In this document: positions 13,345 to 44,830 of the stretch, in pieces | Layout: each line of letters begins with the position of its first letter | How positions within the stretch are numbered: position 1 is the first letter of the stretch | Sequence record: LR746311 | Strand: one strand, 5' to 3' | Length of the DNA stretch: 64,000 bases | Source: Shigella phage vB_SsoM_113 | Translations under genes and position numbers: made by a program | The notes under the pieces: generated by a model | Databases searched by the model: none | What the model was told of the DNA's origin: nothing | The model's input: the letters and a program-made list of their open reading frames with translations, nothing else

Positions 13345-13546
13345 TTCAAAATCCGATTATTTTAATTCTCTCAATGATAAAGATAAAAATCTAATACGGC
13401 ATTTTATCGTTGAGATGGGATATACTGATACACGTGATTTAAGAGAACATATATTTGAATGTGGTGTAGCTAAAAAGTTTTCATTCACGTGCAATTGTTT
13501 AAGAGAGGTAATTCAGCACTATGAACAATTTAGTCGCAAAACATAA
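13328..13546 (+). CDS. hypothetical protein
   Basis: 72-aa ORF; start uncertain, overlaps upstream ORF by 17 nt. Confidence 0.35.
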   Translation: MAREINSKSDYFNSLNDKDKNLIRHFIVEMGYTDTRDLREHIFECGVAKKFSFTCNCLREVIQHYEQFSRKT

Positions 13547-13629
13547 TTTTAATAAAGCTTCTGTCCATAAGGATAAGAAGAAAGCGTTTAAAGAATCTAA
13601 TCGCAAACAGAAACATAAGGGGAAGGTCT

Positions 13630-43439: not shown

Positions 43440-43775
43440 ATGTCTGAAGTACAACAGCTACCAATTCGTGCTGTCGGTGAATATGTGATTTTAGTTTCTG
43501 AACCTGCACAAGCCGGTGATGAAGAAGTTACAGAATCAGGGCTTATTATCGGTAAACGCGTCCAAGGCGAAGTTCCTGAACTGTGTGTAATTCACTCTGT
43601 TGGTCCTGATGTTCCTGAAGGTTTCTGTGAAGTTGGTGATTTGACTTCTCTTCCAGTTGGTCAAATTCGAAACGTTCCGCATCCTTTTGTAGCTCTGGGT
43701 CTTAAGCAGCCAAAAGAAATTAAACAAAAATTTGTTACCTGTCACTATAAAGCTATTCCGTGTCTTTATAAGTGA
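43440..43775 (+). CDS. 31: co-chaperonin gp31 (GroES analogue)
   Basis: 111 aa; [40 protein letters not shown] matches T4 gp31. Confidence 0.9.
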
Positions 43776-43922
43776 TATAAATAATAATATGAATTGGGTG
43801 TCGGAATAATAAGTTAACCGAACAATTCTATGTGGTAGTCTACAACTGAGAGATCTGTCGAAAGAAGATGAAATTCAGAAGAACGTGACTACCGAGTTTT
43901 AATCTCTAACGAGAATTTTTAA

Positions 43923-44171
43923 ATGATTAAACAATTACAACACGCTCTTGAACTGCAACGAAACGCATGGAATAATGGTCACGAAAACTATGGCGCATCT
44001 ATTGATGTTGAAGCCGAAGCTCTTGAAATCCTGCGTTATTTCAAACATCTGAATCCTGCTCAAACTGCATTAGCTGCTGAGCTTCAGGAAAAAGATGAAC
44101 TTAAGTATGCTAAGCCTCTGGCTTCTGCCGCACGAAAAGCAGTTCGTCACTTTGTGGTAACACTGAAGTAA
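43923..44171 (+). CDS. rIII: lysis inhibition accessory protein RIII
   Basis: 82 aa, conserved position after gene 31. Confidence 0.75.
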   Translation: MIKQLQHALELQRNAWNNGHENYGASIDVEAEALEILRYFKHLNPAQTALAAELQEKDELKYAKPLASAARKAVRHFVVTLK

Positions 44172-44567
44172 TTTATTGGAGATTCACTGCCTTAGTGTGA
44201 GCTAAAATCGAGGAGCCGTCGAACTGTCTGATTAATGATTTGCGAATCATTATAGTTTTAAGACCCCGGCAGTTTTACGGTGTACCTCTTGAATGTTATT
44301 CTTATAGCGGCAAGTGCATGCTACCCCGAGGTGATGGCCAATCGGGAGTACGCCTCAAGGCCTATATATCCATCAGTATATATCTTATCCTCGAGAAATC
44401 GAACCCGGAACCTTTAAGCTAACGGTGTGCAACAGATAAGAGTTATAAGTATGATGACGGGTTTATGGTTATCCTGTCGGTAAATACTCAAAACCTAAGT
44501 ACCCCCTTGAGGGCTTTCGCAGGCAATGCCAATAAGTCCTGCATTTTCATTTAAAAGAGAATTTATA
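44172..44567 (+). other. ORF-poor, GC-enriched structured region (candidate ncRNA or long structured leader)
   Basis: About 400 bp with no convincing ORF; hairpin taatgatt-tgcg-aatcatta at 44232-44251; long-range complement cctcaagg (44355-44362) with ccttgagg (44506-44513); terminal hairpin gcagg...cctgc 44519-44542 plus U-run. Confidence 0.3.
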
Positions 44568-44744
44568 ATGGCAAAACAAGCTAAAGCAAAGAAAGCAGTT
44601 GAAAAGAAAGTTGGTGATTCTAAACGCGCTGGTTACAAGCGTGGGTCGAACTCTCGTATCAATCAAACTGTTGAGAAGATCATGCGCCGAGCACGTGCGG
44701 TTCTTCGAGATGATGCTTCTCGTTTTGGTAAGCAGAAAGCATAA
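44568..44744 (+). CDS. small Lys/Arg-rich basic protein (58 aa)
   Basis: MAKQAKAKKAVEKKVGDSKRAGYKRGSNSRINQTVEKIMRRARAVLRDDASRFGKQKA; followed by a strong terminator. Confidence 0.45.
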   Translation: MAKQAKAKKAVEKKVGDSKRAGYKRGSNSRINQTVEKIMRRARAVLRDDASRFGKQKA

Positions 44745-44748
44745 GTTG

Positions 44749-44776
44749 AGGACTCCTTCGGGAGTCCTTTTTTATT
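44749..44776 (+). terminator. rho-independent terminator
   Basis: aggactcc-ttcg-ggagtcct followed by ttttttat. Confidence 0.65.
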
Positions 44777-44797
44777 TTCCAAAGACTGCACAAAGTT

Positions 44798-44830
44798 GTT
44801 TACAGTATGGTTCCTTTGTGATAGTATTAT
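44798..44830 (+). promoter_or_regulatory. early promoter
   Basis: gtttac 44798-44803, about 18-bp spacer, tagtattat. Confidence 0.5.

Follow-up and report, generated by a model that had tools for sequence, protein, structure and literature searches.

Bacteriophage T4 obtains its tRNAs and the stable RNAs known as species 1 and 2 by processing of precursors. Elsewhere in the same phage, the gene 32 leader carries a pseudoknot that is bound by the gene's own product (PMC3014915), and the RIII protein binds ribosomal protein S1 and is reported to inhibit the S1-dependent activation of RegB (PMC9409239), an endoribonuclease whose motif is GGAG (PMC3014915). Here we analyze a 64,000-nucleotide stretch of Shigella phage vB_SsoM_113 (sequence record LR746311; hereafter the window), which is from a Tequatrovirus, i.e., a T4-like phage, and describe a 143-nt element, domain B, lying in the spacer between rIII and the homologue of T4 gene 30.9. 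Based on comparative sequence evidence, domain B is very probably a real, selected, structured RNA, and it appears to define a new, well-supported structured RNA family that is embedded in a modular array of RNA folds. As for its role, we favor, tentatively and with somewhat less than even confidence, the reading that domain B acts in cis as a partner-binding leader or 3'-untranslated region (3'-UTR) module of the rIII-30.9 message.

The spacer and the parts of domain B have the following window coordinates:

44172-44567, + strand: rIII-30.9 spacer, 396 bp, from the rIII stop to the 30.9 ATG at 44568
44304-44446, + strand: domain B, seven-helix structured RNA, 143 nt (covariance model R1, RNAalifold, pair count)
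44304-08 with 44442-46, + strand: helix P1
44309-11 with 44360-62, + strand: helix P2
44320-32 with 44337-53, + strand: helix P3
44363-69 with 44376-82, + strand: helix P4
44383-89 with 44435-41, + strand: helix P5
44391-94 with 44399-402, + strand: helix P6, capped by a GAAA (GNRA) loop
44403-07 with 44423-28, + strand: helix P7, with the conserved 15-nt loop GAMCCUUUAAGCUAA
44429-34, + strand: linker GCAACA

Helices P1, P2, P4 and P5 make up a four-way junction with zero unpaired linker bases, and the near-invariant unpaired parts are the P2/P3 internal loop (AAGUGCAU and CUCAAG, with 5' strand consensus AAGNGCAU), the P7 loop and the GCAACA linker. Judging from the alignments, the domain folds autonomously, closed on itself by P1, with flanks that vary freely.

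The evidence for this fold is comparative rather than thermodynamic, as single-sequence folding is unexceptional (z = -1.27). RNAalifold, applied to a MAFFT alignment of 23 distinct domain B sequences, returned 44 pairs, 21 of them with compensatory changes, and the covariance model R1 built from that alignment scored 179.5 bits at 44299-44451, found no second copy in the window and recovered two divergent copies, those of EcS1 (125 bits) and locus L148 (108 bits). We additionally counted pairs after aligning 35 distinct sequences, drawn from about ten T4-like phage genera, to R1; this alignment is model-fitted and favors structure, but the independent MAFFT result agrees with it. Standard pairs fill 99.0% of cells (vs. 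91.3% when shuffled) and double-sided changes occur in 25 of the 44 pairs (vs. 10.6 ± 1.8 in shuffles), with 0 of 500 shuffles reaching the observed value by any measure, and sliding the partners by 1-3 columns leaves only 26-43% paired and 3-6 double-change pairs. Every one of the seven helices contains at least one double change, and in L148 they include P2 (GGC:GCC to GGU:ACC) and P7 (G-C to A-U). When domain B was scanned for internal tertiary or pseudoknot covariation, most signals were coincidences confined to one lineage, and no usable pairing emerged.

We assign the RNA to the + strand because its abundant G-U pairs would be A-C mismatches on the opposite strand, and a minus-strand RNA was rejected on the same grounds together with a folding z-score of +0.27, no better than shuffles. 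An earlier note on this DNA, made from the letters alone, had proposed a discrete structured RNA here, and the strong covariation in domain B bears this out for the + strand; given such covariation, what the relatives hold is a conserved structure and no intact open reading frame (ORF).

Conservation was also compared with that of the flanking genes. Over nine comparisons, identity to the window was 79-98% for the domain B core, 66-84% for rIII and 59-90% for 30.9, with the core better conserved than rIII in all nine and than 30.9 in eight, the exception being Muldoon (83.9% vs. 84.1%). These values bear on the reading that domain B is no functional RNA at all but a decayed gene, an intron remnant or an element that works as DNA, for instance in recombination or protein binding, for which one can cite the small "hypothetical proteins" annotated over it in several GenBank records and the recombination-prone cassette position that it occupies. 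We give this reading almost no credence, since compensatory changes and strand-specific G-U pairs indicate selection on the RNA fold, domain B outscores rIII always and 30.9 in all but one comparison, and there is neither a conserved frame nor codon-phase bias nor an intron match.

The coding side was examined across the whole spacer. As the earlier note claimed, 44172-44567 holds no credible gene, and no frame is open across homologues: its sole ORFs, a 60-aa TTG ORF (44240-44422) and a 45-aa GTG ORF, are annotated in some GenBank records, the spacers of Serratia phages encode at most 27 aa in any frame, and variable sites in homologous spacers fall almost evenly over the three codon phases (21/21/22), i.e., without codon-phase bias. 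The 60-aa ORF matches no PHROG family. We therefore rejected a coding or decayed gene (no conserved frame, no third-position bias, no protein homologues), and the small ORFs annotated over domain B are, by this sequence evidence, not genes. The intron remnant suggested in the earlier note fails likewise, as no group I or II intron family matched at E ≤ 10, no gene is split, and the flanking rIII and 30.9 are complete.

Searches of known families were made with the 4227 covariance models of Rfam 15, comprising a 3-kb E-value scan, a permissive 399-nt scan, ten relatives and the whole window at the gathering threshold. The 3-kb scan gave nothing over 44172-44567 at E ≤ 5, and the whole window gave no match at the gathering threshold. 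At E ≤ 10 over 399 nt, domain B had no match, and the single match of the scan (DUF2815, 14.6 bits), over the downstream hairpin Y2, was dropped as it did not recur in relatives. A tRNA or tmRNA was rejected, with 0 ARAGORN genes in the whole window and a GGTTCGA-like string lying on the non-RNA strand, and so was a SAM-I or SAM-IV riboswitch, whose likeness consists of short strings and for which no covariance model matched at E ≤ 10. Homology to T4 rnaC/rnaD was rejected as well, with R1, filters off, scoring at most 7 bits across the 5-kb T4 tRNA region. Our literature searches found no description of the rIII-30.9 spacer, with PMC3014915 and PMC5737381 silent on it and PMC4122927 also silent and without mention of rIII or 30.9.

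A four-way junction with conserved internal loops in its arms recalls the hairpin and twister-sister ribozymes. Domain B might accordingly be imagined as a self-cleaving ribozyme, or as a processing signal, by which the rIII message is split from that of 30.9, and T4 mRNAs are indeed heavily processed (PMC3014915). We consider this very improbable, as no ribozyme family in Rfam 15 matches, a single fixed genomic context is unlike that of most self-cleaving ribozymes, and T4 manages without domain B.

Domain B was found in 407 phage records, each with a single copy; the T4-like phages that keep it infect Enterobacterales and belong to about ten genera. By the first word of the organism name, these records comprise 161 Klebsiella, 131 Escherichia, 27 Enterobacter, 26 Shigella and 18 Yersinia, with further ones from Salmonella, Citrobacter, Serratia, Raoultella, Erwinia and others. 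The order rIII, domain B, 30.9 holds in every annotated relative examined (Tequatro-, Dhaka-, Moon-, Karam-, Kanagawa-, Marfa-, Muldoon- and Roskildevirus, plus EcS1), with domain B on the same strand as both genes. Pattern scans of metagenomes, of one genome per bacterial species and of IMG/VR gave T4-like contexts only, plus chance matches, and domain B was not found in more distant rIII-bearing phages.

BLAST with the spacer gave a mosaic picture, in which T4 covers only 61% in two pieces, while the middle of the query (positions 137-273) reaches 91-96% identity in phages of Klebsiella and Enterobacter and 86% in one of Serratia, with the remainder unmatched there. Aligned with T4, Marfa and Serratia 4S, the spacer shows a block of about 150 nt that is conserved elsewhere and absent in T4, with compensatory changes visible by eye. 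The cassette site lies directly after CUCUUGAAUGU, and is occupied by domain B in the window, by an unrelated closed hairpin, Z, in T2-like phages and by nothing in T4, whose empty junction reads CTCTTGAATGT|GAATGATG. Hairpin cassette Z (UACUAUCAUGCG...GUAAGUCUUGGUGGUA) fills the exact site of domain B in loci L125 (2749-3038), L123, L129 and L134, from T2-like and JS98-like phages, and a shorter form of Z is seen in other genera (L140, L163 and EcS1).

This distribution favors the main rival reading, in which domain B is a trans-acting stable RNA cut from the rIII-30.9 transcript, in the manner of the T4 small RNAs named above, and serves as a decoy, sponge or ribonucleoprotein component against a conserved host factor or an anti-phage defence. 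Such a role would fit the closing helix P1, which makes domain B self-contained between freely varying flanks, its cassette behavior (present, absent or replaced at exact boundaries) and a position within the spacer that is not fixed. Whether the phage host is E. coli, Klebsiella, Serratia, Erwinia, Yersinia or another, the loop and junction nucleotides hardly vary, as expected of a conserved target, and the spread of domain B is patchy, with 131 Escherichia-labelled records carrying domain B vs. 568 that match the spacer, resembling that of accessory or counter-defence genes. Against this, the scan found no promoter or terminator belonging to domain B itself, no similarity was seen to known decoy RNAs, CRISPR repeats or T4 rnaC/rnaD, and none was detectable to host DNA, where 5,426 E. 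coli genomes gave no match. On balance we regard a trans-acting RNA as rather unlikely.

Comparison of 56 distinct rIII-30.9 spacers reveals a series of closed RNA modules, which are not all present in every genus and do not always follow the same order. In the window, the modules around domain B are:

44178-44207, + strand: A1 (GGAGAUUCACUGCCUUAGUGUGAGCUAAAA), a small hairpin and possible pseudoknot (by eye in spacer alignments)
44209-44221, + strand: hairpin CGA-GGAGCCG-UCG with GGAG, a RegB-type motif, in its loop, just after rIII (sequence)
44233-44252, + strand: A2, a perfect 8-bp hairpin with a UGCG (UNCG-type) tetraloop, then UAGUUUU (sequence)
44449-44499, + strand: X, an H-type pseudoknot (alignments, pair count)
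44499-44517, + strand: Y1, a short hairpin GUACCC-loop-GGGCUU (alignments)
44519-44552, + strand: Y2, a hairpin GCAGG-(14-nt loop CAAUGCCAAUAAGU)-CCUGC, then AUUUUCAUUU (sequence)
44544-44561, + strand: small hairpin UUUUC-AUUUAAAA-GAGAA predicted to pair the 30.9 Shine-Dalgarno region (read in sequences)

No dispersed copies of these modules were found elsewhere in the window. Module A1 recurs at other spacer positions in other genera, with stem CAC/GUG, CGC/GCG or UGC/GCA, and at the site of the Shine-Dalgarno hairpin other genera have UCUCC...GGAAGA. Y1 is widely conserved and in some genera directly follows the rIII stop codon, and the stem of Y2 is compensatory in relatives (GCAGG/CCUGC vs. 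GAACUGG/CCAGUUC) with a conserved loop. The terminal hairpin with a U-run that the earlier note had placed here is Y2 itself, with stem 44519-44523 paired to 44538-44542 and followed by AUUUUCAUUU; it was not called by the terminator scan, and its loop is about 14 nt.

Module X is present in almost all spacers, including that of T4 (T4 locus L003, ~925-975). Its stem S1 pairs 44455-61 with 44473-79, its stem S2 pairs loop bases GGUU (44467-70) with AACC (44492-95), and an A-rich linker joins them; compensatory variants of S2 include GUUGGUU/AACCAAC, AGUAGUU/AACUACU, CAAGGUU/AAUCUUG, GAUGG/CCAUC and GUGAG/CUCAC. Pairing reached 82%, vs. 38-55% when slid, four of seven S2 pairs are double-changed, and the covariation score of 0.37 (vs. 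0.14) was reached by 0 of 500 shuffles. Two of the aligned sequences are out of register, and we therefore take these values as moderate support that X has the two stems, with a hairpin loop paired downstream, of an H-type pseudoknot. It appears undescribed, and it may be the real operator of 30.9.

Two further cues from the earlier note turned out to be mostly incidental. The 8-bp hairpin TAATGATT-TGCG-AATCATTA is present at 44233-44252, i.e., module A2, and is kept in T4 and JS98 relatives without covariation; taken alone it does not exceed chance, as the window holds 24 perfect 8-bp hairpins vs. 13 ± 4 in simulations. The 8-nt long-range complementarity also exists, although its true site is 44353-44360 (CCTCAAGG) with 44505-44512 (CCTTGAGG), and it shows no covariation across genera. 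Its 44505-44512 strand sits in a hairpin that is also found in phages lacking the 5' partner, e.g., T4, and the pairing is probably due to chance. What sets this region apart is instead the seven-helix domain at 44304-44446, which that note had not seen.

A separate observation concerns the same part of domain B. The 3' strand of the internal loop together with P2 (44353-44362, GCCUCAAGGCC) resembles the Y1 hairpin at 44499-44517 (CCCCUUGAGGG), and GCCUCAAGGCC could form a small local hairpin in place of P2. In COW86c (L008) the counterparts of GCCUCAAGGCC and Y1 are both CCUAUGG, and L148 has GU-UACG-AC there. These very few sequences hint at an alternative fold at P2.

In a second rival reading, domain B would be the sensing part, or aptamer, of a riboswitch of a new class, with a metabolite or ion as its ligand and 30.9 as its target. 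Aptamers typically have a size like that of domain B, a junction of several helices and unpaired nucleotides that are highly conserved, and as a conserved, structured, aptamer-like element domain B always lies upstream of 30.9 on the same strand, as generally expected of a riboswitch, with a Shine-Dalgarno-sequestering hairpin downstream. We nonetheless find a riboswitch improbable, given that no expression platform coupled to P1 was seen in the spacers compared (the candidate pairing of 44353-60 with 44505-12 does not covary), that independent modules intervene at variable spacing and domain B can precede X, that many phages retain 30.9 without domain B, that no riboswitch family matched at E ≤ 10 (including SAM-I/IV, yybP-ykoY and Moco), and that the downstream gene offers no metabolic clue.

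The genes and signals flanking the spacer are as follows:

43440-43775, + strand: gene 31
43779-43786, + strand: late-promoter-type motif TATAAATA, 3' of gene 31 and upstream of rIII (read in sequence)
43923-44171, + strand: rIII, lysis-inhibition accessory protein, 82 aa (ORF; named rIII in 99%-identical phages)
44568-44744, + strand: T4 gene 30.9 homologue, 58 aa, Lys/Arg-rich (phrog_1427 profile match)
44748-44779, + strand: intrinsic terminator (terminator scan; the phage NBG2 record annotates a terminator)
44799-44827, + strand: sigma-70/early-type promoter-like site TTTACA-17-TAGTAT for 30.8 (consensus match only)

Over positions 43900-44800, identity to Escherichia phage vB_EcoM_ACG-C40 is 99.3%, and matches occur in 979 phage records. 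The strong terminator noted earlier is there, with a 9-bp stem at 44748-44769 (five of the nine pairs G-C), a 4-nt UUCG loop and the U-run tail TTTTTATTTT, and together with the promoter-like site at 44799-44827 it appears to form a terminator-promoter boundary. Within the spacer, the scan for sigma-70-type promoters and intrinsic terminators called none, which makes a classical small RNA, as the earlier note had also envisaged, a weak proposal. The motif TATAAATA at 43779 is of the T4 late-promoter type by the established consensus, and is a likely source of transcripts that cross the spacer. The RefSeq record of T4 carries no annotation in that phage's 244-bp rIII-30.9 spacer.

The reported GC enrichment was confirmed, with 41.9% in the spacer vs. 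35.7% in the window (95th percentile among 396-nt windows) and 48.5% in the domain B core. Once spurious ORFs are discounted, the rIII-30.9 spacer is the largest gene-free gap of the window. A second such gap, 43776-43922 (147 nt, 32% GC), separates gene 31 from rIII, with TATAAATA near its start. Elsewhere, 13345-13629 (285 nt, 31% GC) has no ORF of at least 45 aa on either strand and is the longest such stretch in the gap scan, where the rIII-30.9 spacer ranks lower only because it is broken up by spurious ORFs. The stretch at 13345-13629 may represent regulatory DNA or what is left of a gene.

The 58-aa basic ORF after the spacer is likewise as described earlier, and is a homologue of T4 gp30.9 (phrog_1427, E = 2.3e-31, residues 1-58, full length). 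Its 68 homologues, where a source name is given, all come from T4-like phages, and their alignment shows an invariant SKRA-YKR-SN-R motif. The protein has no Pfam match and no credible PDB match. In its AlphaFold2 model (predicted local distance difference test, pLDDT, 68), the Lys-rich N-terminus is disordered and residues 29-53 form the only helix, which fits a nucleic-acid binder but proves nothing. The protein is thus no more than a candidate for the nucleic-acid-binding partner proposed in the earlier note, and T4 retains it while lacking domain B.

Several records label this gene oddly. Public records (hits H9, H24, H25, H37 and H57) name the 30.9 ORF or spacer feature "1,4-alpha-glucan (glycogen) branching enzyme, GH-13", a name also carried by P0018, a 68-aa 30.9 homologue, and which looks like a propagated annotation error. 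UniProt has an old name for T4 30.9, a 97-aa "11.1 kDa protein in Gp30-rIII intergenic region". In locus L152 (2749-3350), the 30.9 ORF has the usual basic N-terminus, lacks the SKRAGYKR motif and appears to enter a different downstream sequence, so that 30.9 may be disrupted or replaced there.

Drawing these observations together, we propose that domain B would be transcribed within the rIII-30.9 message, starting at promoters upstream of rIII and ending at the terminator at 44748-44779. We infer this co-transcription from the lack of any promoter or terminator called inside the spacer and from the late-promoter-type TATAAATA at 43779. Once made, domain B would fold independently of its neighbours and offer a specific binding site to a macromolecular partner that is itself conserved. 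Candidate partners are the basic 30.9 protein, S1 together with RIII, and other RNA-binding factors of host or phage. In cis, domain B may act jointly with pseudoknot X and the hairpin over the Shine-Dalgarno sequence to tune message stability or translation, as an accessory module rather than an essential one. We favor this cis role because the surrounding modules (X, A/U-rich tails and the Shine-Dalgarno hairpin) look like T4 translational operators, because the gene 32 leader offers a precedent, and because RIII binds S1.

A number of observations weigh against the cis role. T4 and many relatives keep 30.9 without domain B, and in some more distant rIII-bearing phages (L156) a 30.9-like ORF almost abuts rIII with no spacer at all, so that the structured spacer is a lineage-specific elaboration and domain B an optional part of it. 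Read from the spacers, the distance from domain B to the 30.9 start codon ranges from ~65 to 175 nt, with other closed modules between, and that to the rIII stop from ~3 to 130 nt. The window, Moon, Cronus and COW86c have domain B first and X after it, whereas in Klebsiella and Serratia phages domain B comes downstream of X. No conserved alternative pairing that links P1 to an expression platform was seen, and the model of the 30.9 protein, one of the putative partners, is of low confidence.

A bolder view is also possible, which we hold a little more doubtful than the cis role. Domain B could represent a novel class of functional RNA that has its own specific ligand, whether a new-fold riboswitch or ribozyme or a decoy against a host factor or defence, in a "beads-on-a-string" locus that swaps RNA cassettes (B, Z or none) like accessory protein genes, and that was overlooked for decades since T4 carries the empty allele.

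In any of these cases, more than 400 sequenced genomes of one of the best-studied groups of viruses carry a large and strongly constrained RNA fold that has no annotation or is wrongly entered as small "hypothetical proteins", likely because T4 itself lacks it. Loops that stay near-invariant across phages of many enterobacterial hosts suggest that domain B must recognize something conserved, and its partner, once identified, could point to further regulation around rIII and 30.9, to a novel pair of RNA and ligand or to an RNA-based counter-defence. The natural alleles (B, Z or neither) make the role directly testable by allele swaps. Annotations can meanwhile be corrected, both for the ORFs over domain B and for the "glycogen branching enzyme" label at 30.9 or the spacer.

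Among described systems, the T4 gene 32 operator shares with this locus the phage group and a structured mRNA-leader element placed well upstream of the start codon, and module X is, like it, an H-type pseudoknot with A/U-rich sequence after it; by analogy, autogenous control by a small nucleic-acid-binding product would be plausible here. There is, however, no sequence relationship, and the operator is an analogue of X only and not of the 143-nt four-way-junction domain B, which is moreover optional.

The SAM-I (S-box) riboswitch is also a four-way junction, and the P5 strands CUUAUC/GAUAAG of domain B and its strings CCCGG.AACC and GGUG.GCAAC recall S-box consensus strings. The order of motifs differs, however, and no K-turn or pseudoknot was identified in domain B, which is not a member of that family. 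T4 species 1 and 2 (rnaC and rnaD) are structured phage RNAs of a comparable ~120-140 nt, annotated only as small stable RNAs. They are processed from a longer transcript and, unlike domain B, to which they are unrelated, lie in the tRNA cluster.

The PeSL (promoter-early stem-loop) cassettes of T4-type phages are described as short non-coding elements, conserved and placed at gene boundaries, that accompany modular shuffling (PMC2839356, PMC4122927). At this locus, the terminator and promoter-like site after 30.9 (44748-44827) are PeSL-like, but PeSLs are promoter-terminator DNA signals, whereas domain B has no promoter motif and is a large fold of RNA that has evolved through compensatory changes.

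Finally, domain B resembles the orphan Rfam motifs and riboswitch candidates in having been found through a GC-rich, ORF-free gap and covariation, and in combining a complex junction, conserved unpaired bases and a fixed gene neighborhood. It differs from them in matching 0 of the 4227 Rfam 15 families, in showing no coupled expression platform in the spacers compared, and in behaving as a cassette that shuffles among closed modules.

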